Origin: Victivallales bacterium
GTDB lineage: Bacteria; Verrucomicrobiota; Lentisphaeria; Victivallales; GWF2-38-69
Direction of reading: 5' to 3'
Assembly (NCBI GenBank): GCA_036011305.1
Contig: DASCNA010000095.1
Coordinates: 12,800 to 76,799, forward strand
Length of the DNA: 64,000 nucleotides
Below the pieces are notes generated by a model. That model did not search any database and was not told the origin of the DNA. It saw nothing but the letters and a program-made list of their open reading frames with translations. Position numbers and translations under genes: made by a program. Below, piece after piece: positions 39,018-51,620 of the stretch (position 1 is the stretch's first letter; the number at the start of each line of letters is the position of its first letter).

Positions 39018-39806
39018 ATGATGAAATTAAAAGATTTTAAATTAAAAAAAGCTAACAAAGAAAAAATTTCACTCATAACATGTTATGATTATAGCTTTGC
39101 TGAAATAATCAATGATACAGATATCGATTGTGTGTTAGTAGGTGATAGCGGTTCTATGGTAATGCATGGTTACCCTACAACAGTTCACGCTACAACTGAA
39201 ATGATGGCTGATATGATAAGAGCTGTGGCTAAGGGCGCCGCGGATAAATTTATAATTGGAGATATGCCTTTTCTTTCTTACCGCAGTGGCTTAGACAAAA
39301 CTATGGATTGTGTTGACAGTCTGATGAAAGCCGGAGCAAATGCTGTAAAACTTGAAGGAGTTGAAGGTAACAAGGAATTAATTAGACATATTATTGAATC
39401 CGGTGTGCCTGTTATGGGACATATAGGACTTACACCTCAATCCGTAAATGCTTTTGGCGGATATGTTGTTCAGGGCCGTGACCAGGAAAATGCTGATAGG
39501 CTTATTGAGGAAATTAAACTTCTTGAGGAATTAGGCTGCTTTGGTGTTGTACTGGAGTGTATTCCTGCTGACCTAGCTGAAAAAATGTCTAAAGCTGTTA
39601 AAATACCTACAATTGGGATTGGAGCCGGTTTTAACACAGACGGTCAGGTGTTGGTTTTACATGACATGCTGGGAATGAAGAAAGATTTAAATATGAAATT
39701 TCTCAGAAAATATTTGAATTTATATGATGAAGTAAAATCTGCTATCAATAAATATAATAAAGATGTAAAAGACGTTACTTTTCCAAATAAAAATGAATGT
39801 TTCTGA
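39018..39806 (+). CDS. panB: 3-methyl-2-oxobutanoate hydroxymethyltransferase
   Basis: TCYDY, LVGDSG, DMPF, VKLEG, GHIGLTPQ, GIGAG, DGQVLV. Confidence 0.96.
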   Translation: MMKLKDFKLKKANKEKISLITCYDYSFAEIINDTDIDCVLVGDSGSMVMHGYPTTVHATTEMMADMIRAVAKGAADKFIIGDMPFLSYRSGLDKTMDCVDSLMKAGANAVKLEGVEGNKELIRHIIESGVPVMGHIGLTPQSVNAFGGYVVQGRDQENADRLIEEIKLLEELGCFGVVLECIPADLAEKMSKAVKIPTIGIGAGFNTDGQVLVLHDMLGMKKDLNMKFLRKYLNLYDEVKSAINKYNKDVKDVTFPNKNECF

Positions 39807-40584
39807 TATGAAGATTAGAATTTTTGAAGATATCCCAGAGTGGACCAATTTTAGAAAATCAATTTCCAGTTCTAAATCTTTAGGTGTTGTGATGACTATG
39901 GGGGCACTTCACAGGGGACATCGCACTTTAATTGAACGTAGCAAGAAAGAGAATGATTTAACTGTTGTTACTATCTACCTTAACCCAACTCAGTTTAATA
40001 ATGAAAATGACCTTGATAACTATCCTTCTACATGGGATGATGATGTAAAAGTATTGGAATGCTTAGATGTAGATTTTTTATTGGCTCCTAGATATGATCA
40101 GATATATCAGGATGATTATAGGTATGTTGTCACTGAGAATGATTTCAGTAAAATTTTATGCGGAGGCGCAAGGCCCGGGCATTTTGACGGTGTATTGACT
40201 GTTGTTATGAAGCTTTTAAACATAACTAAAGCAGATAGGGCTTATTTTGGAGAAAAAGATTATCAGCAGTTTCATCTTATAAAAGGAATGCGGGATGCTT
40301 TTTTTATTGATACTGAGATTATTCCCTGTGCTATAGCTCGGGAAAAAGATAACTTGGCTTTGAGCTCGAGGAATAAACTTTTGACTGCAGGAGGTAGAAA
40401 ATTAGCTGCTTTTTATGCTAAAGCTATAAGAGAAAATACTGAAATTGATAAAATAAAATTAAAACTTGAAAATAATAATATAAAAGTTGATTATCTGGAA
40501 GAAAGATATGGTCGTCGTTTTGCTGCAGTATTCATAGATGACGTAAGGTTAATTGATAATTTTGATTTGAAGGAGTTAGAATAA
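39793..40584 (+). CDS. panC: Pantoate--beta-alanine ligase
   Basis: TMGALHRGH, NPTQF, RPGHFDGV, FGEKDYQQ, LSSRN, RLIDN. Confidence 0.95.
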   Translation: MNVSDMKIRIFEDIPEWTNFRKSISSSKSLGVVMTMGALHRGHRTLIERSKKENDLTVVTIYLNPTQFNNENDLDNYPSTWDDDVKVLECLDVDFLLAPRYDQIYQDDYRYVVTENDFSKILCGGARPGHFDGVLTVVMKLLNITKADRAYFGEKDYQQFHLIKGMRDAFFIDTEIIPCAIAREKDNLALSSRNKLLTAGGRKLAAFYAKAIRENTEIDKIKLKLENNNIKVDYLEERYGRRFAAVFIDDVRLIDNFDLKELE

Positions 40585-40585
40585 G

Positions 40586-40954
40586 ATGGAAAGAACAATG
40601 TTAAAATCTAAAATACATATGGCTACAGTTACTGAGGCCAATTTAGAATATTTTGGTTCCATAAGCATTGGACCTGACATGAGAGCAAAAGCTGATATGA
40701 TACCGTTTGAAAAAGTAGATATTTATAACTGTAATAACGGACAGAGATTTTCAACTTATGTGATTGAAACAGACAAGGAAGGTGAAATCTGTTTAAACGG
40801 CGCAGCTGCCAGACTTGTTGAAAAAGGTGATAAAGTTATTATCGCTTCTTATGCACAATACGGAGAAAGAGAAGCTTCTGAATTAAAACCTTATCTTGTT
40901 TTTGTTGATGATAAAAACAGTGTCAAAGAAGTAAGACGAGAAGTACCTAAATAA
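40586..40954 (+). CDS. panD: Aspartate 1-decarboxylase
   Basis: MLKSKIH, YFGSISI cleavage site, NGQRFSTYVI, CLNGAAAR. Confidence 0.96.
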   Translation: MERTMLKSKIHMATVTEANLEYFGSISIGPDMRAKADMIPFEKVDIYNCNNGQRFSTYVIETDKEGEICLNGAAARLVEKGDKVIIASYAQYGEREASELKPYLVFVDDKNSVKEVRREVPK

Positions 40955-41011
40955 TATTTACTGAATATATAACATAGACAATAATTAGTATTTCTCTTCT
41001 ATAAGTAAATA

Positions 41012-42823
41012 CTAATTATTATTTGTGATATCTTTATAAACAGAGAGATAGTATTTTTTATTAATTAATGTTTTTTTTGAAAATTTGGCTTTTATTGTTC
41101 GAACTTCGCCATCGGGTCTGATAATTCTGAATTTTCTTTTGGAGGGGTAGGAGTTATCTTTATAATATTTAGCCTGTTTGGGTCTGTCTTCAGGATGAAC
41201 ACAATGATTTAACCAAAACTCCGTTCCGCCTTCATAAAGTTTTTTTTCTGGGTAACCTAACATCTCAACTGCGGCCTGATTAAGAAAGTAAATATCTTTT
41301 CCCTTCAAGGCCGTAATAATGAACCCGTCAGATATTGAATTCAAGCAGAGTTCCAGGAGTTCTTTCATATCTTCTTTTTTCTTTTTTTCTGTAACATCTT
41401 TACTGATTGTCAGTGTATATTCGGTTCCCAGGAATACTTTTTTTCGTCTAGTTGATTCTATCCAAACAATTTTGCCATCAGGTTTTATAACTCTGTACTC
41501 ATCATGTTCAGGCCATGTTCTTGAAATCAGGTATGTTTTTTCTCTTTCTCTATCATCTGGATGAATATAGTTAAGCCATAATTCAATTCCTGATTTATAA
41601 AATTCTTCAGCAGTAAAACCGAAAATTTTATCTGTAGAGTTGTTAGAATATCTGGTAATATCCTTTTTAGATTTTTTATCAAAGCTGCTTAAAGTCAAAG
41701 CTGATTCCATCGCATCAACATTTAAACGGAGCAGTTCACTTATTTCTTCACTTTTTCTCTTTTCTGTAATATCCCTGATTACTGAACACATAAATTCTTT
41801 ATTTAACAGATGTTGAAATTCACATGTTGCCTCTATCAGACGTATGGAGCCGTCAGGCCTTATTATTCTGTATTCTCTTCGATCCGGCCAGAATTTGTTC
41901 CTATAATATTGGGTCTGTTCATCACGGTCATCAGGATGGACACAATTTTTTAACCAGAAATCCACTCCGCCTTTTTTATATTTTTCAGAAGATACGCCAG
42001 TTATTTGTTCTATCACTTCACTTACAAAAAAATATGAATTCTTTTCTATATCTCGAATACAGTATGCATCTGATACAGAGCTTAATGACAGTTCCAGCAT
42101 TTCTCTTATTTCTTCAGTACGTTTTCTTTCAGTTATATCTACAAAAAAACCTGTCAATCCGGCTATTTTTCCCTCTGAATCAAATATCGGATATTTTGAA
42201 ATCAATCCCCATTTTTTTTTTCTAGTTCCAGGTATTGTCCCCTCAAAATCTACAAGAGGTTTGCCTGTTAATATTACATGTCTATCCTGCTTTTCATTAG
42301 TTCTGGCTTCATTATGACTGAAAAAATCATAATCATTGCGGTTTAACACGTGATCTTCTGTAAATTGAGATGATGTATCTTTAAGAAATTGGTGATTTAC
42401 TGTAATATATTTCAGGCTGGTGTCTTTAACATAAAACATAAATTTCATAGATGTCATTATGGCTTTAATTATTGTTGTTGTCTGATTATATTTTTCAAAC
42501 ATTTCTTCAAGTTTTGTGACAAACACTTTTTGAATGGCTTCCTGAGAGAAATCATCTTTACCTGAAAAAGCACGCCATGAATATGTCAAATCACTGATTT
42601 TACCTTCAGATAAAGGATATTCAGGTTCCAGATCGGATATTTCGTTAACTGAAACATTCAGAATTTCAGCTAAAATTCTTGTTTTGCTTTCATTTGGTTT
42701 AGTTTTATTTTTTTCCCATGACCATACTGTACTTCTATTAACACCAACTTTTTTAGCAGCAAAAGTCATGTTGATTTTTTTCTTCAATCGAAGTGATTTG
42801 AATTTTTCTGAATAAAACTCCAT
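41012..42823 (-). CDS. XRE-family HTH regulator fused to four PAS domains
   Basis: AAKKVGVNRSTVWSWEKNKTKP HTH; a PAS ending DITERK; three repeats W-L-x-x-x-V/IHPD/EDR...YRII/VKPDG. Confidence 0.85.
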   Translation of the reverse strand: MEFYSEKFKSLRLKKKINMTFAAKKVGVNRSTVWSWEKNKTKPNESKTRILAEILNVSVNEISDLEPEYPLSEGKISDLTYSWRAFSGKDDFSQEAIQKVFVTKLEEMFEKYNQTTTIIKAIMTSMKFMFYVKDTSLKYITVNHQFLKDTSSQFTEDHVLNRNDYDFFSHNEARTNEKQDRHVILTGKPLVDFEGTIPGTRKKKWGLISKYPIFDSEGKIAGLTGFFVDITERKRTEEIREMLELSLSSVSDAYCIRDIEKNSYFFVSEVIEQITGVSSEKYKKGGVDFWLKNCVHPDDRDEQTQYYRNKFWPDRREYRIIRPDGSIRLIEATCEFQHLLNKEFMCSVIRDITEKRKSEEISELLRLNVDAMESALTLSSFDKKSKKDITRYSNNSTDKIFGFTAEEFYKSGIELWLNYIHPDDREREKTYLISRTWPEHDEYRVIKPDGKIVWIESTRRKKVFLGTEYTLTISKDVTEKKKKEDMKELLELCLNSISDGFIITALKGKDIYFLNQAAVEMLGYPEKKLYEGGTEFWLNHCVHPEDRPKQAKYYKDNSYPSKRKFRIIRPDGEVRTIKAKFSKKTLINKKYYLSVYKDITNNN

Positions 42824-42942
42824 AAATATATAAATTCTATAAATTCAGTTTAATTACTATCTTGCGAATTATTTTGATAAGTTATTCATTAAATAAAAAT
42901 TTTATTGCTTTTGCACTGTTGCGTTTATCAATTAACACTATT

Positions 42943-42983
42943 AATACAACGCATTATGTTAAAAATACAACACCAAAATGTTA
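42943..42983. promoter_or_regulatory. Tandem operator-like repeats in the divergent XRE/carboxyltransferase promoter
   Basis: AATACAAC-gcatt-ATGTTA (42943) and AATACAAC-accaaa-ATGTTA (42964), 21 bp apart. Confidence 0.5.
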
Positions 42984-43101
42984 GATTGCTGAAATAATCT
43001 ATAATTTATTTTGAGTTTATCTTTATTTGATTTTTATTATAAATCATATTTAGAATAGTGAAATTTAAAAACAAACATCAAAAAAGGGGTAAATCGGGAT
43101 A

Positions 43102-44652
43102 ATGAATACAGAAAAGGCTATTTCTGAGCTTATTCAGAAAAAAGAAAAAGCTCTCCTGGGTGGTGGTTTAAAAAAAATCCAACAACAGCATAAACAGGGA
43201 AAATTAACTGCAAGGGAAAGGATTGATTATCTTTTAGATACAGGAAGTTTTGAAGAATTTGATTTGCTGAAAGAGCATCGTTGTTCTAAGTTTGGAATGG
43301 AAAAAATACAACACCCTTCTGACGGTGTAATTACAGGTTACGGAACAATTGACAAAATGCCTGTTTATATTTTTGCTCAGGATTTTACTGTTTTTGGTGG
43401 CTCACTTTCAGAAACCTATGCGGAAAAAATTATAAAAATAATGGATCTTGCAGTTAAATCAGGTGTTCCTATTATCGGTCTGAACGACTCAGGCGGTGCT
43501 AGAATTCAGGAAGGAATAGAAAGCTTGGCTGGGTATGGAGAAATTTTTCATAGAAATGTAAAATGTTCCGGAGTTATACCTCAAATTTCGGCTATTCTAG
43601 GCCCATGTGCAGGAGGAGCAGTTTATTCTCCAGCAATTACAGACTTTAATATTATGGTAAGAAACACTTCTTCTATGTTTGTTACAGGGCCAAAAGTTGT
43701 AAAAGCTGTAACAAATGAAGACGTTGATATAGAAACCCTCGGTGGAGCTGAAATAAATAATTCTAAAAGCGGTAATGCCCATTTTGCTGTGGATACGGAA
43801 CACGAAGCTTTGAAAACTGTAAAAAAGCTTATCACTTATTTGCCGCCAAGTTATAAACATGGTCAGGTTGTTTCACACTGTTCAGATCCTATGTTAAGAG
43901 AAGAGGATTCCTTAAATAAAATCATTCCTGAGAACTCTAATCAGCCATATGATATGAAACAGATTATATCAGCAGTAGTTGACGATGAGAAATTTTTGGA
44001 AGTTCACCAGTCGTTTGCTATGAATATAATTGTAGCTTTTGCTAAACTAAATGGAAGAACTATCGGTATTGTTGCAAATCAGCCTAATTATCTTGCAGGA
44101 GTTCTCGACTGTAACTCTTCAAGAAAAGCTGCCAGATTTGTAAGATATTGCGATTCTTTTAATATCCCTATTTTAACTTTTATTGATGTCCCAGGATTCC
44201 TTCCCGGAACAGATCAGGAATACGGTGGAATCATTACCCATGGTTCTAAACTGCTTTTTGCTTATTCAGAAGCCACTGTTCCTAAAGTGTCTGTTATTAC
44301 AAGAAAAGCTTATGGCGGTGCTTATGACGTGATGAGTTCAAAACATATTGGCGGTGATATAAATTACGCATGGCCGACAGCGGAAATAGCAGTGATGGGT
44401 GCTGAAGGGGCTGCTGAAATTATTTTCAAAAAAGATTTAAAAGATTCTGATAATCCTGAAGAGCTTTTAAAAGAAAAGATTTCATATTATAAAAAAGAAT
44501 TTGCCAATCCGTATCAGGCTGCTAAAAGAGGTTATATCGATGATATAATTATTCCATCAAAAACAAGAGGAAAATTAATCAGAGCTTTTGAAATACTGTC
44601 ACATAAAGAAGAACAGGCTCCTGAAAGAAAACATAGTAATATTCCGTTGTAA
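43102..44652 (+). CDS. Acyl-CoA carboxyltransferase (PccB/MmdA/transcarboxylase 12S family)
   Basis: [64 protein letters not shown]. Confidence 0.93.
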
Positions 44653-44692
44653 TTGAGTATCCTTAAAATCATAAGATAAATTAGGTGAAGAA

Positions 44693-46519
44693 ATGAAAAA
44701 GATAAAATTTATGGATACATCATTTCGTGACGGTTTTCAGTCATGTTTTGGAGCAAGAATTAAAACAGAAGATTTTTTACCGGCACTTAAAGTCGCAGTA
44801 GATTCAGGAACTGTAAATTTTGAAATTGGTGGTGGTGCAAGATTTCAAAGTCTCTATTTCTATTGTCAGGAAGATGCTTTTGACATGATGGATAAATGCC
44901 GCGAAGTTGTAGGAAGTGATATCAATCTTCAAACTCTGGCAAGAGGAGCTAATGTTGTCGGACTTGTTTCCCAGTCAAGAGATATTATTGAACTTCATGC
45001 TAAGATGTTTAAAAAACACGGTGTGGATACAATAAGAAATTTTGATGCTCTTAATGATGTTAGAAACCTTAAATATTCAGGACATAAAATAAGTGAGAAC
45101 GGTCTAAAGCATCAGATTACAATAACTCTGATGGGATTGCCTCCTGGTATTGGAAAAGTATATGAGCATTCTCCTGAATATTATGTTGAAACTTTTAAGA
45201 AAATTCTAAAAGCAAATATACCTTTCGATAGCTTATGTCTAAAAGATGCTTCCGGTACTACATGTCCACAGATTGTCTATAAAACAGCAAAAGGGATAAA
45301 AAAACTTTTACCTGAAGGAGTGGAGCTTCAGTTTCATACACACGATACAGCCGGAATGGCTATTGCCTGTAATATGGCGGCTATTGAAGGCGGAGCAGAT
45401 ATTATTGACCTGGCAATGCAGCCGTGCAGCGGGGGGACAGGTCAGGCAGATATACTTGGAATGTGGCATAAATTAAAAGATACTGATTATACACTTGACA
45501 TTGATTATTTAAAAATCATGCAGGCAGAAGAAGCATTTATAGAACATATGGATAAATATTTTCTTCCTCCTGAAGCCAGAGAAATAAATCCTTTTATAAT
45601 TTTTTCTCCAATGCCGGGAGGTGCATTAACTGCCAATACACAGATGATGCGTGACAATAACTGTCTTAATTTATTTCCAAAGGTTATAAAAGAGATGCAG
45701 GAAGTAGTTGAACGCGGCGGTTTCGGAACTTCTGTTACCCCTGTTTCCCAGTTTTATTTTCAGCAGGCTTTTTCTAATGTGACACAGGGTAAATGGGCAA
45801 ATATTACAGAACCTTATGGCAAAATGGTGTTGGGCTATTTTGGTCAGACTCCAGCTGAACCAGATCCTGAAATAGTGAAAATGGCATCTGAACAGTTGAA
45901 CTTACCTCCTACAAAAGAGGATGTTCATGATCTTAATGACAAAAATCCGAAACTTGGCATAGAATATGCAAGAAAACAGCTTTTGAAAAACAATCTTCCT
46001 GTAACAGATGAAAATATTTTTATTGCTGCAGCATGTGAAATCAAAGGAATTGATTTTCTAAAAGGTGATAAACCCATGGGGATTAGATACAAAAAAGATG
46101 TTGTTGAGAGAGCTTCTCTGAGAGCACAAGAAGAGGAAGATAAAAAGAAAAAAGAAGATGAAATATATTATAATGTTACTATTGAAGGTAAAACAAAAAA
46201 ATATGTTCAGATTCTATCCGGATTAGCCAGTGATGCTCAGTATCCTATTAAATTAATTCATGAAAAAGTAACCGGTACCAGTGGAAAATCAGGTTATGAA
46301 GTCAGATCTCCAATGCCGGGGTCTGTTTTCAAAGTTCTTGTTACAGAAGGGCAGATTGTGGAACGCGGTGAAACTGTAATTATTCTTGAAGCTATGAAAA
46401 TGGAATCAAAAATTGTAGCTGAAAAGCCCGGAAAAGTGATTGAGATACTTATTGAAAAAGGGCAGACAGTTGAGTCTAACGAATTAATGCTTCTTCTCCA
46501 AAAAATAGAAGATAAGTAA
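44693..46519 (+). CDS. Pyruvate/oxaloacetate carboxyltransferase fused to a biotinyl domain (OadA/PycB/5S+1.3S type)
   Basis: FRDGFQS, LKDASG, FHTHDT, MPGGAL, VTPVSQ, C-terminal EAMKM. Confidence 0.92.
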   Translation: MKKIKFMDTSFRDGFQSCFGARIKTEDFLPALKVAVDSGTVNFEIGGGARFQSLYFYCQEDAFDMMDKCREVVGSDINLQTLARGANVVGLVSQSRDIIELHAKMFKKHGVDTIRNFDALNDVRNLKYSGHKISENGLKHQITITLMGLPPGIGKVYEHSPEYYVETFKKILKANIPFDSLCLKDASGTTCPQIVYKTAKGIKKLLPEGVELQFHTHDTAGMAIACNMAAIEGGADIIDLAMQPCSGGTGQADILGMWHKLKDTDYTLDIDYLKIMQAEEAFIEHMDKYFLPPEAREINPFIIFSPMPGGALTANTQMMRDNNCLNLFPKVIKEMQEVVERGGFGTSVTPVSQFYFQQAFSNVTQGKWANITEPYGKMVLGYFGQTPAEPDPEIVKMASEQLNLPPTKEDVHDLNDKNPKLGIEYARKQLLKNNLPVTDENIFIAAACEIKGIDFLKGDKPMGIRYKKDVVERASLRAQEEEDKKKKEDEIYYNVTIEGKTKKYVQILSGLASDAQYPIKLIHEKVTGTSGKSGYEVRSPMPGSVFKVLVTEGQIVERGETVIILEAMKMESKIVAEKPGKVIEILIEKGQTVESNELMLLLQKIEDK

Positions 46520-46541
46520 AAACAGACATAATTGTAACATT

Positions 46542-46579
46542 AGCTTATTACTCTGGTAATCCAGAGTAATAAGCTTTTT
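46542..46579 (+). terminator. Intrinsic terminator closing the two-gene carboxyl-transfer operon
   Basis: AGCTTATTACTCTGG-taat-CCAGAGTAATAAGCT-TTTT, perfect 15-bp stem. Confidence 0.85.
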
Positions 46580-46708
46580 ATTTATCTACTTATACAAAGG
46601 ACTTAGAAAGTATGATCTTAAAATAATATTCTTAAGTATTTTAACAATTTTTATACTAAAATAGTATTTATATTTAAAGTGTAGGTTTTTAATTTAATAG
46701 GTTGTATT

Positions 46709-47722
46709 ATGAGTTTTATTTTAGGGATTTTAGCTGTAATTTTTGCGGGAGTTCTTGATGGTTCTTATGCTATACCGATTAAATACATGAGAAATATAGA
46801 AGAAGATAAAATATGGTTTTATTTTTCATGGTGGGCATTTTTGATTATACCTATAATAACACTTCTGCTTATCGATATTCATGTATTCAATTATATCAGT
46901 AAAATCAAAATACTCTATATTATCATTCCTTTCATCATCGGTATGCTTTGGGGGATTGGAATGATATGTGTCAGCCTGGCATTTAAAATGATAGGCATAG
47001 GTGTTAATTTCGCTGTTCATATCGGAATAGGAACAGCAGGGGGTGTTCTTTTTCCACTAGTTTTTATTCATTACCGTAAAATTAATACAACGTTTGGATA
47101 CCTTGTATTAATTGGTGTCCTTTTATTCATCTTCGGCGTTATATTTGCAGGAAGAGCAGCTGAAGTCAGAGATAAGGAATTAAAAGAATCTGAGAATAAA
47201 TCAACTCATTATCTGCTTGGAATAATATTATCTGTAATTGGAGGGGTGGCATCTTCAATTCAGGGGTTTTCATATATGTATTCCATAGTGGGAATAAGAA
47301 ACCAAGGTTTGATAAACAGTAGTAATCAACTTTTCTTAGCCCTGCTTCCATGGATTATAATTTCAATCGGTGCTTTTATCCCTTTTACTGTTTTTTTCTA
47401 TATCAAAGGACGTAAAAAAAATCTGAATTTTAAAATCAGTAAGATTTCTATTTTTAATCATATATCAATAATGATAATGGGACTATTCTTTTTTGAATGT
47501 CTTTTTCTGTATACAAAATCATCTCTCGATTTTGGAAAATTAGGTACAATTATAGCTTGGCCGCTGTTTATGTCATTTATTGTACTTTCTTCAAATATCT
47601 GGGGTTTTATATTTAAAGAGTGGCAAAAAGCTGATAAGAAAGCCTGCAGGCTTATCTGGTTATCTGTATGTGTACTGATAATGGCTGTTATTGTTGTTTC
47701 TATTTCCACTAATTATCAATGA
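46709..47722 (+). CDS. RhaT-like (L-rhamnose/H+ symporter family) DMT sugar transporter
   Basis: GSYAIPIKY, GMLWGIG, SNIWGFIFKEW; ~10 TM. Confidence 0.75.
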   Translation: MSFILGILAVIFAGVLDGSYAIPIKYMRNIEEDKIWFYFSWWAFLIIPIITLLLIDIHVFNYISKIKILYIIIPFIIGMLWGIGMICVSLAFKMIGIGVNFAVHIGIGTAGGVLFPLVFIHYRKINTTFGYLVLIGVLLFIFGVIFAGRAAEVRDKELKESENKSTHYLLGIILSVIGGVASSIQGFSYMYSIVGIRNQGLINSSNQLFLALLPWIIISIGAFIPFTVFFYIKGRKKNLNFKISKISIFNHISIMIMGLFFFECLFLYTKSSLDFGKLGTIIAWPLFMSFIVLSSNIWGFIFKEWQKADKKACRLIWLSVCVLIMAVIVVSISTNYQ

Positions 47723-47880
47723 TATAATTCATTCTTAATCAAAAATATCAAAAGATATATTTTGAGAATGTTTGTTTTTAATTTTATATAAAATTAAAAC
47801 AACTTGTAAAAATTAATATAATTAAATATATTCAGTAATTTAGGGACAAATATTAATACCTCTGAAGGGAGAGATTAATT

Positions 47881-48540
47881 ATGGTGGACGTACTTGCAAT
47901 AACAGCACATCCTGATGATTTAGAGGCAGGAGCTGCAGGGTTTATGCTTAAAGCTAAATCAAAAGGCTTAAAAACCGGTTTGATTATACTTACCAAAGGG
48001 GAAGCTGGAAAAGATGGTAATGCAGCTATTAGAGAGATAGAAGCAAAAAAAGCTGCAGATATTCTGAAAATAGATGAACTAACACATCTGGATTTTCCTG
48101 ATGCAGGTATTCAGAATAACAAAGAAACTCTGGATATCATTGTTCCCTTAATAAGAAAAGCTTCACCTGATATAATTTTGACTATCCATGCAGATGACTA
48201 TCATCCTGATCACTGTGCCGTATCAAAATTAGTTGATAAGGCTGTATTTGTTGCAGGTCTTAGAGGTAACTCAGAGGATGATTCCACATGGCATCCAAAA
48301 AATACTTTTTATTTCTGTATAAATTCCAAATATTTTAATAAAAAACCAGATTTTATTTTAGATATTTCAGATGTTTGGGAAACTAAAAAGAAAGCTGTTT
48401 TAGCACATGCATCACAACCAATTATTGAAATGATTGAAAATCAAAGCAGGTTTTTTGGTATGATTCATGATATAAAATACGGTGAAGGATTTTTTTCAAA
48501 ATATCCGTTTCTTATGAATGATATAAGTTGCCTGTTTTAA
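47881..48540 (+). CDS. PIG-L family N-acetyl deacetylase (BshB1-like)
   Basis: AHPDDLE, LTKGEAG, HPDH, HASQ. Confidence 0.88.
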   Translation: MVDVLAITAHPDDLEAGAAGFMLKAKSKGLKTGLIILTKGEAGKDGNAAIREIEAKKAADILKIDELTHLDFPDAGIQNNKETLDIIVPLIRKASPDIILTIHADDYHPDHCAVSKLVDKAVFVAGLRGNSEDDSTWHPKNTFYFCINSKYFNKKPDFILDISDVWETKKKAVLAHASQPIIEMIENQSRFFGMIHDIKYGEGFFSKYPFLMNDISCLF

Positions 48541-48583
48541 GTAAACATAGAATAATAATAAATAGTAAGTATAAGATTTTATT

Positions 48584-49873
48584 GTGGCGGGAGCTAATAA
48601 AAAAACATGTATATATAGCATAATGCTTATAGTATTTATGTTTGTACTTCCTTTTCTTATTTCCGGCTGTGGAAAAACTGAACATAAGTCAGGTATTGCT
48701 TATCTTAAAATGTCATACTGGGATGAAAACCAGAAAACTTCTATTGAAAGCCTTATAAAAGTTTTCGAGAAGAACCATCCTGATATTAAGGTAAAACCTG
48801 AACTGATTCCATGGAATCAGTACTGGATTAAATTAGATGCAGCCGCATCTGCACATGAACCCCCGGATGTTTTCTGGATGAATGTATACCTGCCTAAATA
48901 TGTCAGGGCAGGTGTAATTATTCCATTTAATAAATTTATTAAAAAAGATCATTTGAATCTTAATAATTATTTTAAAACAAGTATCAAACTTTTCTCCTAT
49001 AGGGGGAAGCTATATGCAATGCCTGTGCAGACAGATTGTATTACAGTTTATTATAACAAAGCTATTTTTAATAAATATCATGTTAAATATCCTGAAAACG
49101 GATGGACCTGGAATGATATGATAAAAACCGGTCTTCTCTTGAAAAAAAGGATAAACCAGGCAGGTGTAAAGGGTGTTTATCCTCTTGCTATGGAGTTAGA
49201 CCCACAACCGTCATACTTTAATCTTATATATCAGGAGGGAGGACGTATTCTTTCTCCTAACGGAAGGAAATCTGAATACGATACTCCACAGGTGATAGCT
49301 GCTTATAAAAAGATAATCTACTTAATGCATTCGGGTATAATGCCAAGTTTCAATATTTTATCTGACACAAAAGGTTCTGAAATGTTTATGTCACAAAAAG
49401 CAGCTATGCTTTATATGGGAACATGGATGGCAAAAGTATTTGACAATACCAGTTTTGCTAAAAATATAGGTGTAGTGGTTATGCCTAAAATAAAAAACAA
49501 TATAACTATGCAGAGCGGTGTTGGTTATTCTGTTTCAGCTTACACAAAGTACCCGGAAGCAGCATGGAAACTTGTTAAGTTCCTGTCCGGCCCTGAGGGC
49601 AGCAGAGTTTTTGCAGAATCGGGTTCCAATATACCTGCCTACAAGAAAGCTAAAAAATATTATATAAAGAGTTTGAAACATATTAATGCAAATGTTTTTT
49701 ATGATGCATTGAAGCACTCTGTTCCTTTTCCTACTTCGCCCACTATCTCAACGTGGTTCGGCTTGATAAGAGAATATGAGCCTGACATATATAGTGGGAA
49801 AATACCGGTAGCTACTTCAGTTAAGGAAATTGCTGTACAGATGAATATTATTTTAAGCAGAGTTAAAGACTAA
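48584..49873 (+). CDS. Sugar ABC transporter substrate-binding lipoprotein
   Basis: Lipobox ISGC, FEKNHPDIKV, PDVF, YYNKAIF, AAWKLVKFL. Confidence 0.9.
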   Translation: MAGANKKTCIYSIMLIVFMFVLPFLISGCGKTEHKSGIAYLKMSYWDENQKTSIESLIKVFEKNHPDIKVKPELIPWNQYWIKLDAAASAHEPPDVFWMNVYLPKYVRAGVIIPFNKFIKKDHLNLNNYFKTSIKLFSYRGKLYAMPVQTDCITVYYNKAIFNKYHVKYPENGWTWNDMIKTGLLLKKRINQAGVKGVYPLAMELDPQPSYFNLIYQEGGRILSPNGRKSEYDTPQVIAAYKKIIYLMHSGIMPSFNILSDTKGSEMFMSQKAAMLYMGTWMAKVFDNTSFAKNIGVVVMPKIKNNITMQSGVGYSVSAYTKYPEAAWKLVKFLSGPEGSRVFAESGSNIPAYKKAKKYYIKSLKHINANVFYDALKHSVPFPTSPTISTWFGLIREYEPDIYSGKIPVATSVKEIAVQMNIILSRVKD

Positions 49874-49875
49874 TT

Positions 49876-50781
49876 ATGATGACTAAGAAAAGAATATTGA
49901 CAGGTAAAAAACTTAATGAAATTAAATGGGCATGTATATTTTTGGCTCCAATGTTTATCGGTTTGTTTGTTTTCTATATTTATTCTTTTGGAATGAATAT
50001 TTTCTACAGTTTTACAAATCTTGATTCATTAGGCAGTTTTTCCTGGATTGGATTGGATAATTATGTAAGAATGTTTCAGGATAGATATTTTTATGAAGCC
50101 TTATTCAATACGTTTAAATATGTAATAATAGCTGTTCCTTCAATCGTTATTTTATCTACTTTGATTGCTGTACTTCTGAACCAGAAAATTAAATTTAAAG
50201 GTATTTACAGGACACTTATTTTTATACCTGCAATAACAATGCCTGCAGCAATAGGACTGTTATGGAGATGGCTTTATAACTACCAGTACGGTGTAATTAA
50301 CATTATATTAGCAAAATTCGGTATTCAGCATGTCGCATGGCTTTCTGATGGCAGCCTGGTAATAGTCTCAGTTTCTGTTGTTATTGTATGGAGCATGGTG
50401 AGTTATCTGATGATAATAGTACTTGCCGGGCTGCAGGATATACCGAAAGTATATTATGAAGCAGCTATCATTGACGGGGCAGGGCCGTTTAAAACATTTT
50501 TCTGCATTACTCTACCCTTGCTTACTCCTACTCTGTTTTTTGTTACAGTCATTACTGTTATTAATATTTTTCAGGTTTTTGATTTCATTCTTTTAATGAT
50601 ACCTCAGGGTAGTGCTGGTCTGCATTCTGCAATGTCTCTTGTTTACTATTTTTATAACCAGTCATTTGTACTTTTTGATAAGGGATATGGTGCTGCTATT
50701 ACCATAGTACTGTTTTTTATCATTCTTATTATAACGTTGATACAGCTTAAACTTCAGAAAAAATGGGTCCATTATAATTAA
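49876..50781 (+). CDS. Carbohydrate ABC transporter permease 1
   Basis: GLDNY, LAGLQDIPKVYYEAAIIDGA. Confidence 0.92.
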   Translation: MMTKKRILTGKKLNEIKWACIFLAPMFIGLFVFYIYSFGMNIFYSFTNLDSLGSFSWIGLDNYVRMFQDRYFYEALFNTFKYVIIAVPSIVILSTLIAVLLNQKIKFKGIYRTLIFIPAITMPAAIGLLWRWLYNYQYGVINIILAKFGIQHVAWLSDGSLVIVSVSVVIVWSMVSYLMIIVLAGLQDIPKVYYEAAIIDGAGPFKTFFCITLPLLTPTLFFVTVITVINIFQVFDFILLMIPQGSAGLHSAMSLVYYFYNQSFVLFDKGYGAAITIVLFFIILIITLIQLKLQKKWVHYN

Positions 50782-50786
50782 TTCAG

Positions 50787-51620
50787 GTGGAATATAATAC
50801 GATGAAGAACAATAAAAAATATTTAATACATATAATAATTATTTTTATAATTATACTTACTATTTGCCCATTTTTGTGGATGATTCTGACTTCTTTAAAA
50901 ACCTTTCAGGAGAGTATTCAGATACCTCCGGATATTTTTCCTAAGATATTTCAGTGGCATAATTACTCAACTGTCTTTAAACAGTTTCCGTTCCTGGCAT
51001 TTTATTTTAATACTTTTGCTTCAGTTATTGGTGTTGTAATAGGACAGGTGATAGTAAGTTCAATGGCGGCATATGCTTTTGCAAAAATAGAATTCCCGGG
51101 AAGGGATGTACTATTTGTAATAATGCTGGCCCTATTAATGATTCCGAGTCAGGTATTTATAATTCCACAGTTTCAGATAATGGTGAAACTGCATTTAACA
51201 GATACTGTGATTGCTCTGATACTGCCTGGAATATTCAACGTATTCGGTACTTTTTTATTAAGACAGTTTTTTATGTCAATCCCCAAAGAATTAACTGAAG
51301 CTGCACTAATTGATGGATGTAATCATTTTCAGATTTATTATAAAGTAATGCTTCCTCTTGTTAAGCCTGCTCTGATTGCGTTGTCTATATTGACTGCCAT
51401 GTGGACATGGCAATCTCTTCTATGGCCCTTGATTGTGAATAGTTCATTAAACAAGGAAACACTATCTGCAGGTCTGGCCTTGCTGATAGGTCAGCATAAT
51501 ACTGTATATCCTCTTGTCATGGCTGCTGGCGTGTTGTCCATATGGCCTATGATTATAATATTCTTTGTCTTTCAGAAAAAATTTATTGAAGGTATATCTA
51601 TTTCAGGGAGTAAAGGATGA
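50787..51620 (+). CDS. Carbohydrate ABC transporter permease 2
   Basis: AAYAFAK, LRQFFMSIPKELTEAALIDGC, FQKKFIEG. Confidence 0.92.
   Translation: MEYNTMKNNKKYLIHIIIIFIIILTICPFLWMILTSLKTFQESIQIPPDIFPKIFQWHNYSTVFKQFPFLAFYFNTFASVIGVVIGQVIVSSMAAYAFAKIEFPGRDVLFVIMLALLMIPSQVFIIPQFQIMVKLHLTDTVIALILPGIFNVFGTFLLRQFFMSIPKELTEAALIDGCNHFQIYYKVMLPLVKPALIALSILTAMWTWQSLLWPLIVNSSLNKETLSAGLALLIGQHNTVYPLVMAAGVLSIWPMIIIFFVFQKKFIEGISISGSKG

Follow-up and report, generated by a model that had tools for sequence, protein, structure and literature searches.

A two-gene operon of a marine Lentisphaerota bacterium encodes a candidate two-protein transcarboxylase with subunits apparently descended from sodium-pumping decarboxylases

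Introduction

Transcarboxylase (EC 2.1.3.1) is the textbook example of ATP-free carboxyl transfer; to our knowledge, the 26S complex of Propionibacterium, with its three subunits, is the one form of it known in detail. In this classical enzyme the N-terminal peptide of the 1.3S subunit glues the 12S subunit to the 5S subunit. In the Na+-pumping decarboxylases of oxaloacetate (Oad) and methylmalonyl-CoA (Mmd) the alpha subunit moves the carboxyl group from the substrate to biotin and the membrane beta subunit, named "carboxybiotin decarboxylase" in some sources, decarboxylates the carboxybiotin; the carboxylation of biotin needs a biotin carboxylase. Here we report on a two-gene operon in a 64,000-nucleotide stretch of DNA (the window; G000:C95:12800-76799) from a metagenome-assembled genome (MAG) of a Victivallales bacterium, in which an acyl-CoA carboxyltransferase gene (gene 1) is followed by the gene of a keto-acid carboxyltransferase with its own biotinyl domain (gene 2).

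Transcarboxylases have also been proposed outside Propionibacterium. The passages on the mmc clusters of the syntrophic propionate oxidisers Pelotomaculum and Desulfotomaculum list an MmdA-like alpha subunit, epsilon and gamma subunits and a "5S" subunit, which are read as a propionyl-CoA:oxaloacetate transcarboxylase (PMC8892533, PMC6046458), and the D. gibsoniae mmc cluster is said, in the corresponding passage, to be without the epsilon and gamma genes (PMC4148979). A survey of gut genomes places a two-subunit "MMCT" in Actinobacteria only, according to the portion dealing with this enzyme (PMC9403272). A literature search with incomplete coverage, supplements excluded, gave no description of a transcarboxylase with a 5S part fused to a biotin carboxyl carrier protein (BCCP), or of any transcarboxylase in Lentisphaerota.

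An initial annotation of this DNA had read the operon as a possible minimal methylmalonyl-CoA:pyruvate transcarboxylase. The anatomy that it described was right and its interpretation, drawn from the sequence only, is plausible and remains the best reading, with several parts corrected below and with one addition that sharpens it: on the evidence of trees and gene neighbourhoods, each of its genes goes back to a soluble subunit of a sodium-pumping decarboxylase, a different one in each case, and this descent is the new element of this work.

Results

The gene pair and its products

The MAG comprises 5.32 Mb in 337 contigs (93.1% complete, 6.0% contamination), and the closest named homologs of the genes of the window belong to Victivallales/Lentisphaerota. 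Open reading frame (ORF) prediction gave two genes on the same strand (Table 1). No terminator was found in the 40-nucleotide spacer between them and therefore both are probably co-transcribed. The hairpin at the end of the operon (46542-46575) starts 23 nucleotides past the stop codon of gene 2, has 15 pairs (6 G-C) and a loop of 4, and is followed by TTTTTATTTAT; across the region terminator-like sites were not in excess (2 found, 3.1 expected in shuffles). The ORFs together with Pfam and NCBIfam revealed no biotin carboxylase, OAD_beta or OAD_gamma in the operon. Both the gene order with its terminator and the lack of a biotin carboxylase and of beta and gamma pump subunits were thus confirmed as initially annotated. 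The junction of gene 1 and gene 2 is spanned with 0 differences by contigs from other marine metagenome runs (X2 record 6, 44327-45096; X3 record 13, 44492-46155; X8 record 29, 44641-44791; X4 appears to be the same data as X3), so that the gene order does not stem from a chimeric assembly. Positions 43000-46600 of the window, or part of them, occur in 20 runs, each a marine or seawater DNA metagenome, with no RNA run listed.

Table 1. Coordinates of the operon and of the adjoining features in the window.
Feature	Position	Strand	Evidence
panBCD, adjoining on the regulator side	39018-40954	+	
Regulator, 603 residues, HTH_3 and several PAS domains, divergent from gene 1	41012..42823	-	Pfam/NCBIfam
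AT-rich intergenic region, 278 nucleotides, between the divergent regulator gene and gene 1	42824..43101	.	sequence
Gene 1, 516-residue acyl-CoA carboxyltransferase of the 12S / MmdA / PccB type	43102..44652	+	PF01039, TIGR01117, PDB matches, tree
Spacer, 40 nucleotides, with ribosome-binding site AGGTGA ahead of the second ATG	44653..44692	+	sequence
Gene 2, 608-residue OadA-type pyruvate/oxaloacetate carboxyltransferase with C-terminal biotinyl domain	44693..46519	+	Pfam/NCBIfam
Codon of Lys569 in EAMKME, predicted biotin attachment site	46397..46399	+	E566-E571 invariant in alignment A1
Intrinsic-terminator-like hairpin with T-rich tail, end of the operon	46542..46585	+	terminator scan

The product of gene 1 matched the Carboxyl_trans profile PF01039 over its full length (E 7.8e-193), and among PDB entries it matched PccB (3n6r, 662 bits) and 12S (1on3, 576 bits). 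It corresponds to the acyl-CoA carboxyltransferase (12S / Carboxyl_trans) part of a transcarboxylase. With the mmdA model TIGR01117 the score was 780.6 bits, under the cut-off of 998.8, and the partner genes mmdB, mmdC and mmdD are not in the operon. At E <= 1e-80, homologs of gene 1 were found in 8 of the 9 other genomes of the family and in 0 of the 51 genomes of the other families of the order.

Three types of carboxyltransferase could be distinguished among these homologs. Type (a), linked to an epimerase gene and a free BCCP, shares 54-58% identity with gene 1; the genome of the window has it, as do 8 other family genomes. Type (b) is the MmdA of an operon of mmdA, a gene for 111-113 residues, a 141-residue BCCP and an OAD_beta protein of 374-378 residues; it is 72-74% identical to gene 1 and was found in the sister genus (G005:C23, G009:C11 and, with the first three genes, G007:C50). 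Type (c), with a homolog of gene 2 directly 3' of it, is that of the window, of G009:C164 (71% identical) and of G007:C445 (= L015). A quick tree of 37 carboxyltransferases was calculated with IQ-TREE, leaving out the partial G007:C445 copy and a fragment from G007:C516. In it, gene 1 and three close homologs joined the 5S-linked copy of G009 (SH-aLRT 90, unstarred), and a starred set (95) of 15 rows united this group with the clade of MmdA from mmd operons (98). The epimerase-linked carboxyltransferases were distant (branch 0.66). From tree and identities gene 1 is judged to be a paralog of MmdA, the alpha subunit of the Na+-pumping methylmalonyl-CoA decarboxylase.

At the position matching D422 of ScPccB, gene 1 has Asp (fragment residues 2-69 against 1xnv 394-461, ungapped), the MmdA copies have Cys, and Ile is found both in the 5S-linked copy of G009 and in the paralogs linked to an epimerase. 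Exchanges of Asp and Ile at this site are described, in the part of the source that treats them, to shift the acetyl/propionyl preference of actinobacterial carboxylases, Asp favouring propionyl-CoA, and the same part calls the residue "not the sole determinant" (PMC7835884). As Asp, Ile and Cys all occur within the group, the residue was rejected as a predictor of the substrate.

The protein encoded by gene 2 consists of a TIM barrel (HMGL-like, about residues 1-295), a PYC_OADA domain (302-503, E 1.8e-28), a linker and a Biotin_lipoyl domain (536-600, E 2.8e-17). The best PDB match was PycB (5ks8, 183.3 bits), followed by 5S (1rqb, 171.8 bits, residues 7-503) and OadA (2nx9, 153.4 bits). Residues D13, K184, H215 and H217, which, following the 5S structure, are taken to be metal ligands, are invariant in the homolog alignment A1, and the D / K-D / H-x-H motif is common to 5S and PycB. 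Gene 2 thereby provides the 5S-type keto-acid carboxyltransferase, metal-site motif included, as well as the carrier with its A-M-K-M motif, fused to it in place of a separate 1.3S; the corresponding domains of 1.3S (1dcz, 1o78) and of PycB can be aligned with this segment. The scores were 315.6 bits with the PycB model NF006761 (cut-off 402), 312.8 bits with the oadA model TIGR01108 (cut-off 756.5) and 218.2 bits with NF008984, the equivalog of the Propionibacterium-type 5S (cut-off 827), which was accordingly not reached.

Homologs of gene 2 number in the thousands, with 61-68% identity across Lentisphaerota, Kiritimatiellota and Chlorobi, and are annotated as "biotin attachment protein" or "pyruvate carboxylase subunit B". 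In species-representative genomes 592 relatives were confirmed; for the best 80 of them the loci were fetched and the neighbours determined by tblastn. OadB was a neighbour in 49 of the 80 loci and OadG only in 2; neither was present in 22 loci whose flanks measured 2 kb or more on either side, mostly of Chlorobiaceae and Chloroflexota, or in 6 more with flanks too short to tell, and the remaining locus (L015) had an acyl-CoA carboxyltransferase as neighbour. When 41 neighbouring ORFs, taken from 23 of these loci, were compared with Pfam, 12 loci proved to have OAD_beta and many to have OAD_gamma. Within the same order, a gene 2 homolog was found in 41 of 60 genomes (42 of 61 counting that of the window). 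There, 27 of 29 loci had OadB adjacent, one a carboxyltransferase (L099 = G009:C164) and one, with 1.5-kb flanks, neither. A biotin carboxylase gene lay within just 1 of the 109 related loci (L072). From the adjacency of OadB it follows that the carboxyltransferase, PYC_OADA and biotinyl architecture is that of the alpha subunit of Na+-translocating oxaloacetate decarboxylase. What the initial annotation had read as a fusion of a 5S with a 1.3S part is therefore ordinary OadA-family architecture and not a new fusion, and gene 2 fails the 5S model NF008984 (218.2 against 827).

A FastTree of 106 rows was calculated after dropping rows with a tblastn alignment under 560 residues or a start beyond the first 10 query residues, and it gave the same topology for the gene 2 clade as a careful IQ-TREE of 30 of these rows (all 10 rows of the family clade and 20 others chosen by hand). 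In the latter, the copy of the window, P0002 (91%), P0003 (90%), L015 and L099 formed one clade (UFboot 100 / SH-aLRT 96), nested with long stems (0.34, 0.42) in a 100/100 clade with OadB-linked OadA of the same Victivallales-like family. Gene 2 is thus, from its position in the tree, a recent paralog of OadA. It stays below TIGR01108 despite being nested among OadB-linked homologs, the whole Lentisphaerota/Chlorobi-type subfamily diverging from the curated model, and neither oadB nor oadG, the partners of oadA, is adjacent or turned up when the 93%-complete assembly was searched by profile and tblastn. For PycB the NF006761 cut-off was likewise missed, and the sole biotin carboxylase gene lies beside accB.

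In 76 OadB-linked homologs, 224 columns reach a conservation of 90% or more. Gene 2 departs from 10 of these, each time by a conservative replacement; in the pump-linked copies the median is 3 and the maximum 17. Gene 2 is, by this pattern, under purifying selection, and from the intact conserved columns, the EAMKME sequence and the D/K/H-x-H motif its protein is predicted to be functional. A residue diagnostic for the paired copies was sought in the same alignment, and 0 of the 224 conserved columns were changed in all five of them. The sequence therefore does not distinguish gene 2 from a pump alpha subunit.

Some homologs of gene 2 deviate in architecture or context. In the homolog of a Cloacimonadales MAG (L058) the biotinyl lysine is replaced (K569N) and Phe stands for the preceding conserved Ala, and this protein may not be biotinylated. 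Homologs from Chloroflexota, SAR202 and Moduliflexus (L023-L025, L035, L063) match residues 1 to about 470-500 with 62-70% identity and are 5S-like, without a biotinyl domain and with no OadB nearby. Chlorobiaceae loci L018, L019, L026-L034 and L060 hold a full-length homolog with biotinyl domain and no OadB or OadG within 8 kb, and in both of the solitary loci that were checked with Pfam (L027, L060) a class I fumarase gene is found just upstream; in the Chlorobium loci L020-L022 oadG and oadB are present. The OadB beside this OadA subfamily measures 504-587 residues in Victivallales, Chlorobium and Desulfobulbales-like genomes (L016, L017, L020, L057, L067, L071, L079, L094, L143), with an N-terminal extension of 150-230 residues without Pfam match ahead of the OAD_beta domain, and the usual 375-389 residues in other lineages (L073, L081, L089, L092).

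Recurrence of the pair

The pair was present in 3 of 10 genomes of the family (G000, G007, G009). The gene order is the same in G009:C164 (L099/L145, with a 66-nucleotide spacer) and in G007:C445 of the sister genus, so that the conservation of the operon, raised in the initial annotation, holds for the order of the genes in these genomes. At L145, the one other complete copy of the pair that was inspected, a peptidase M15 gene and a beta-lactamase-family gene flank the pair, and no HTH/PAS regulator adjoins it. A beta subunit gene adjoined the pair in 0 of the 3 loci.

Pumps are encoded elsewhere in these relatives: G007 also has oadG-A-B, and G009 also has mmdA-D-C-B including its own 141-residue BCCP. 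Since the pair coexists with complete pumps, it is not merely the remnant left after loss of a beta gene, and since the pumps have alpha subunits and carriers of their own, a separate role of the pair is suggested. Homologs 94%/91% and 90% identical to gene 1/gene 2 had the same longest-contig figures (25,812 and 4,296,673), and the gene 1 and gene 2 homologs in these cases (P0002, P0003) probably share contigs; it is only through these figures that P0002 and P0003 are taken as carboxyltransferase-linked. Both members of the pair are, from the trees, derived by duplication of pump alpha subunits within the family and appear to have travelled together since.

Carboxylases and pathway partners in the genome

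The single biotin carboxylase gene of the assembly lies on contig C7 in a canonical accB-accC pair, and accA and accD complete the set. A profile search of the 5.32-Mb assembly did not find OAD_beta, nor did a tblastn search in which the queries were seven proteins from relatives, four OadB and three OadG (best E 0.25). The product of gene 2 is the only PYC_OADA protein of the assembly. As to the absence of biotin carboxylase and beta subunit that marks a transcarboxylase, neither is encoded in the operon, a beta subunit is encoded in relatives that have the pair, and AccC is encoded elsewhere in the genome.

Neither a pyruvate carboxylase nor a PEP (phosphoenolpyruvate) carboxylase was found in the assembly; two PEP carboxykinases, one of the ATP and one of the GTP type, are encoded. 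Genes for methylmalonyl-CoA epimerase, two mutases, MeaB and two succinate CoA-transferases were present, together with two methylmalonyl-CoA decarboxylases of the crotonase (YgfG) type. Fumarate reductase was not found, the sole full FAD_binding_2/Succ_DH_flav_C protein of the assembly being NadB. The genome search suggested in the initial annotation yielded mutase, epimerase and an accC beside accB, and no OAD_beta of the oadB/mmdB type in the 93%-complete MAG. Of the two uses that it had offered for the enzyme, ATP-free synthesis of malonyl-CoA is unsupported and not needed because the full accABCD set is present; as to propionate fermentation, a classical Wood-Werkman cycle is not evident, given that no fumarate reductase was found and two YgfG decarboxylases are encoded.

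A second mmdA-like carboxyltransferase, 57% identical to gene 1 (522 residues, Ile at the position of PccB-D422), is encoded on contig C159. Its cluster (C159:32300-47600, L013) holds this carboxyltransferase between the epimerase and a free 131-residue BCCP, as well as a 168-residue protein, an MFS (major facilitator superfamily) transporter and an HTH/PAS regulator. A divergent group of genes comprises korABC and those for a mutase, a YgfG-type decarboxylase, a succinate CoA-transferase and MeaB. Clusters of the C159 type occur in the genome of the window and in 8 of 9 other family genomes, some of which (such as the single-contig G008) are without a beta subunit or OadA; in such genomes some other protein, perhaps AccC, must therefore load or unload the biotin of the cluster. 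The two sets of mutase, YgfG and succinate CoA-transferase (C260:5000-9636, L014, and C159:40235-44718) resemble sbm-ygfG-ygfH of E. coli.

Neighbourhood of the operon

The intergenic region upstream of gene 1 is presumably the location of the promoter. It carries AAGGGG about 12 nucleotides ahead of the ATG; promoter-like hexamers (43011-43040, 43027-43056) were at chance level (39 found, 33.5 expected). An Rfam scan of 40900-47000 (E <= 0.1) gave zero matches, that is, no riboswitch or leader upstream. The divergent HTH_3/PAS protein is a possible regulator of the operon. It shares 28% identity over 231 residues (E 3e-20) with the HTH/PAS protein of the C159 cluster (L013:3523-4263, - strand), so that paralogous HTH_3 and PAS regulators adjoin both carboxyltransferase clusters of the genome, which may point to common regulation.

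The panBCD genes and the PAS regulator do adjoin the operon, as had been annotated; the functional link drawn from this is unsupported, this neighbourhood not being shared by L145, and a connection of the operon with panBCD was rejected for the same reason. Past the terminator (46709-51620, +) follow a RhaT-like sugar/proton symporter, a BshB1-like (PIG-L) deacetylase, which with 178.6 falls just under the cut-off of the bacillithiol BshB1 model (182.5), and a sugar ABC transporter, all unrelated to the operon.

Discussion

On balance we lean slightly towards reading the two proteins as a methylmalonyl-CoA:pyruvate transcarboxylase that works without ATP and whose origin is separate from that of the Propionibacterium enzyme. 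The MmdA-derived product of gene 1, as a hexameric acyl-CoA carboxyltransferase, would take the carboxyl group from (S)-methylmalonyl-CoA and place it on the biotin of the C-terminal domain of gene 2, and the OadA-derived TIM-barrel site of gene 2 would pass it on to pyruvate. The net, reversible reaction would be (S)-methylmalonyl-CoA + pyruvate <-> propionyl-CoA + oxaloacetate and, as a best guess, would couple methylmalonyl-CoA derived from succinate, on its way to propionate, to the ATP-free synthesis of oxaloacetate in this genome. As the operon has no beta subunit, no biotin carboxylase and one shared biotin, carboxyl exchange should be the only net chemistry open to it. We infer the cooperation of the two proteins, their substrates and the direction of the reaction from these features. 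As for history, we would give even chances to a second and recent origin of transcarboxylase in one marine Lentisphaerota family, in which copies of MmdA and OadA were joined with the biotinyl domain of OadA as shared carrier.

Several observations weigh against a transcarboxylase. Gene 2 falls under the equivalog cut-offs of 5S, OadA and PycB alike and bears no sequence mark of a change of partner relative to pump-linked OadA. The acyl-CoA substrate is not fixed by the sequence, the position of ScPccB D422 differing between gene 1 (Asp), the 5S-linked G009 copy (Ile) and MmdA (Cys). With 93% completeness and 6% contamination of the MAG, the absence of OAD_beta is insecure and may be due to an assembly gap. 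A relative with an approximately 90% identical pair appears to carry an OadA-type protein (P0006) and an OadB (P0249, 71% identical to that of G005), all with the longest-contig figure of 4,296,673, and G005, the most complete sister-genus genome (97%), has both pumps and does without the pair. The biotin-independent YgfG decarboxylases and the two PEP carboxykinases mean that neither the formation of propionyl-CoA nor the supply of oxaloacetate requires the pair. A complex prediction of gene 1 (A2) with residues 455-608 of gene 2 (A1) scored 0.00 against a mark of 0.32; its controls remained unfolded and it is no evidence either way.

In the main rival explanation the two proteins would be alternative soluble alpha modules of a Na+-translocating decarboxylase, served by an OadB or MmdB beta subunit encoded elsewhere. 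Both would then load the biotinyl domain of gene 2, making a pump that accepts oxaloacetate and methylmalonyl-CoA, with the beta subunit in the unassembled part of the MAG or, in the relatives, in the oadGAB or mmd operons. This would fit the frequency of OadB beside the gene 2 family (49 of 80 species-representative and 27 of 29 same-order loci), the retention in gene 2 of all pump-type conserved columns, the beta subunits of the other genomes with the pair (G007, G009 and probably the relative with the 4.3-Mb contig, through P0249) and a MAG that is only 93% complete. It is nevertheless unlikely in our estimate: neither OAD_beta nor OAD_gamma was found in the 5.32 Mb assembled, the beta operons of the relatives already have their own alpha subunit (OadA) or alpha subunit and BCCP (MmdA, MmdC), the pair forms a clade of its own with long stems, has its own terminator and lies beside no beta gene in three loci, and the co-transcription, away from a pump, of two alpha subunits with different substrates would be left unexplained.

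A further possibility, which we hold improbable, is that the proteins are parts of ATP-dependent carboxylases that borrow AccC, gene 2 being of the PycB type, gene 1 of the PccB type and the biotinyl domain shared. The matches of gene 2 with PycB (5ks8, 183 bits; NF006761, 315.6) and of gene 1 with PccB (3n6r, 662) are compatible with this, as are the one biotin carboxylase and the lack of another pyruvate carboxylase or PEP carboxylase in the genome; the cluster of epimerase, carboxyltransferase and BCCP in genomes without beta subunit or OadA (G008) indicates that borrowing of AccC may even be usual in the family. Gene 2, however, remains under the PycB cut-off (315.6 against 402) and is nested among OadB-linked OadA and not among PycB, a biotin carboxylase occurs within 1 of 109 related loci (L072), and the sole copy of this genome belongs to accB-accC. 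A transcarboxylase acting on another acyl-CoA, for example oxaloacetate + acetyl-CoA -> malonyl-CoA + pyruvate as initially suggested, or on some further short acyl-CoA, would be a variant of the proposed enzyme and has very little probability in our view. The variation at the specificity-linked position (Ile in the 5S-linked copy of G009, where gene 1 has Asp) and the location of the epimerase beside the C159 paralog and not beside gene 1 would agree with such a substrate, but the Asp of gene 1 at the position of ScPccB D422 is the state of propionyl-CoA carboxylases, the nearest paralogs of gene 1 are the MmdA of mmd operons, and a complete accABCD already serves for malonyl-CoA.

If the methylmalonyl-CoA:pyruvate transcarboxylase reading is true, the operon would represent a minimal natural transcarboxylase of two proteins, a soluble group-transfer enzyme made from the parts of pumps, and would show biotin enzymes swapping modules while their energetics shift from ion pumping to group transfer. 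It would also offer a simpler scaffold for engineering the ATP-free carboxylation of pyruvate or acyl-CoAs. Annotations such as "oxaloacetate decarboxylase alpha", "pyruvate carboxylase subunit B" and "biotin attachment protein", now taken in metabolic reconstructions as evidence of a Na+ pump or an ATP-dependent carboxylase, would have to be read differently in marine and gut Lentisphaerota. Should the two proteins be alpha modules of a pump, the finding would be ordinary.

Compared with the transcarboxylase of Propionibacterium freudenreichii (EC 2.1.3.1; 12S + 5S + 1.3S), the pair has the same three functional parts and is likewise without a biotin carboxylase and a membrane subunit. It uses two genes instead of three, the keto-acid subunit bearing the carrier as a domain at its C-terminus. 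Since gene 2 is not an ortholog of the Propionibacterium 5S and the pair is without a free N-terminal peptide of the 1.3S type, its origin appears to be independent of that enzyme.

Among the pumps, gene 2 shares the architecture of OadA in OadGAB and its closest sister sequences are OadB-linked, whereas the operon has no OadB or OadG and the neighbour of gene 2 is an acyl-CoA carboxyltransferase. To MmdABCD(E) the operon is related through gene 1, with its 72-74% identity to the MmdA of the sister genus, but MmdB, MmdC and MmdD do not adjoin gene 1, and the operon has no carrier besides the biotinyl domain of gene 2, in contrast to the separate BCCP of the mmd operons. In PycA/PycB, PycB is built like gene 2 from a carboxyltransferase, a PT domain and a BCCP; no biotin carboxylase of the PycA type is adjacent here.

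The nearest published precedent for the pair is, by analogy, the transcarboxylase of the mmc clusters, with which it shares its logic, an MmdA-like alpha subunit together with a "5S" subunit and no beta subunit, as far as the consulted descriptions of these clusters go. The mmc clusters are large pathway operons of Firmicutes, in which the carrier, where those descriptions mention it, is a separate gamma subunit, whereas the pair is a stand-alone two-gene operon of Lentisphaerota.

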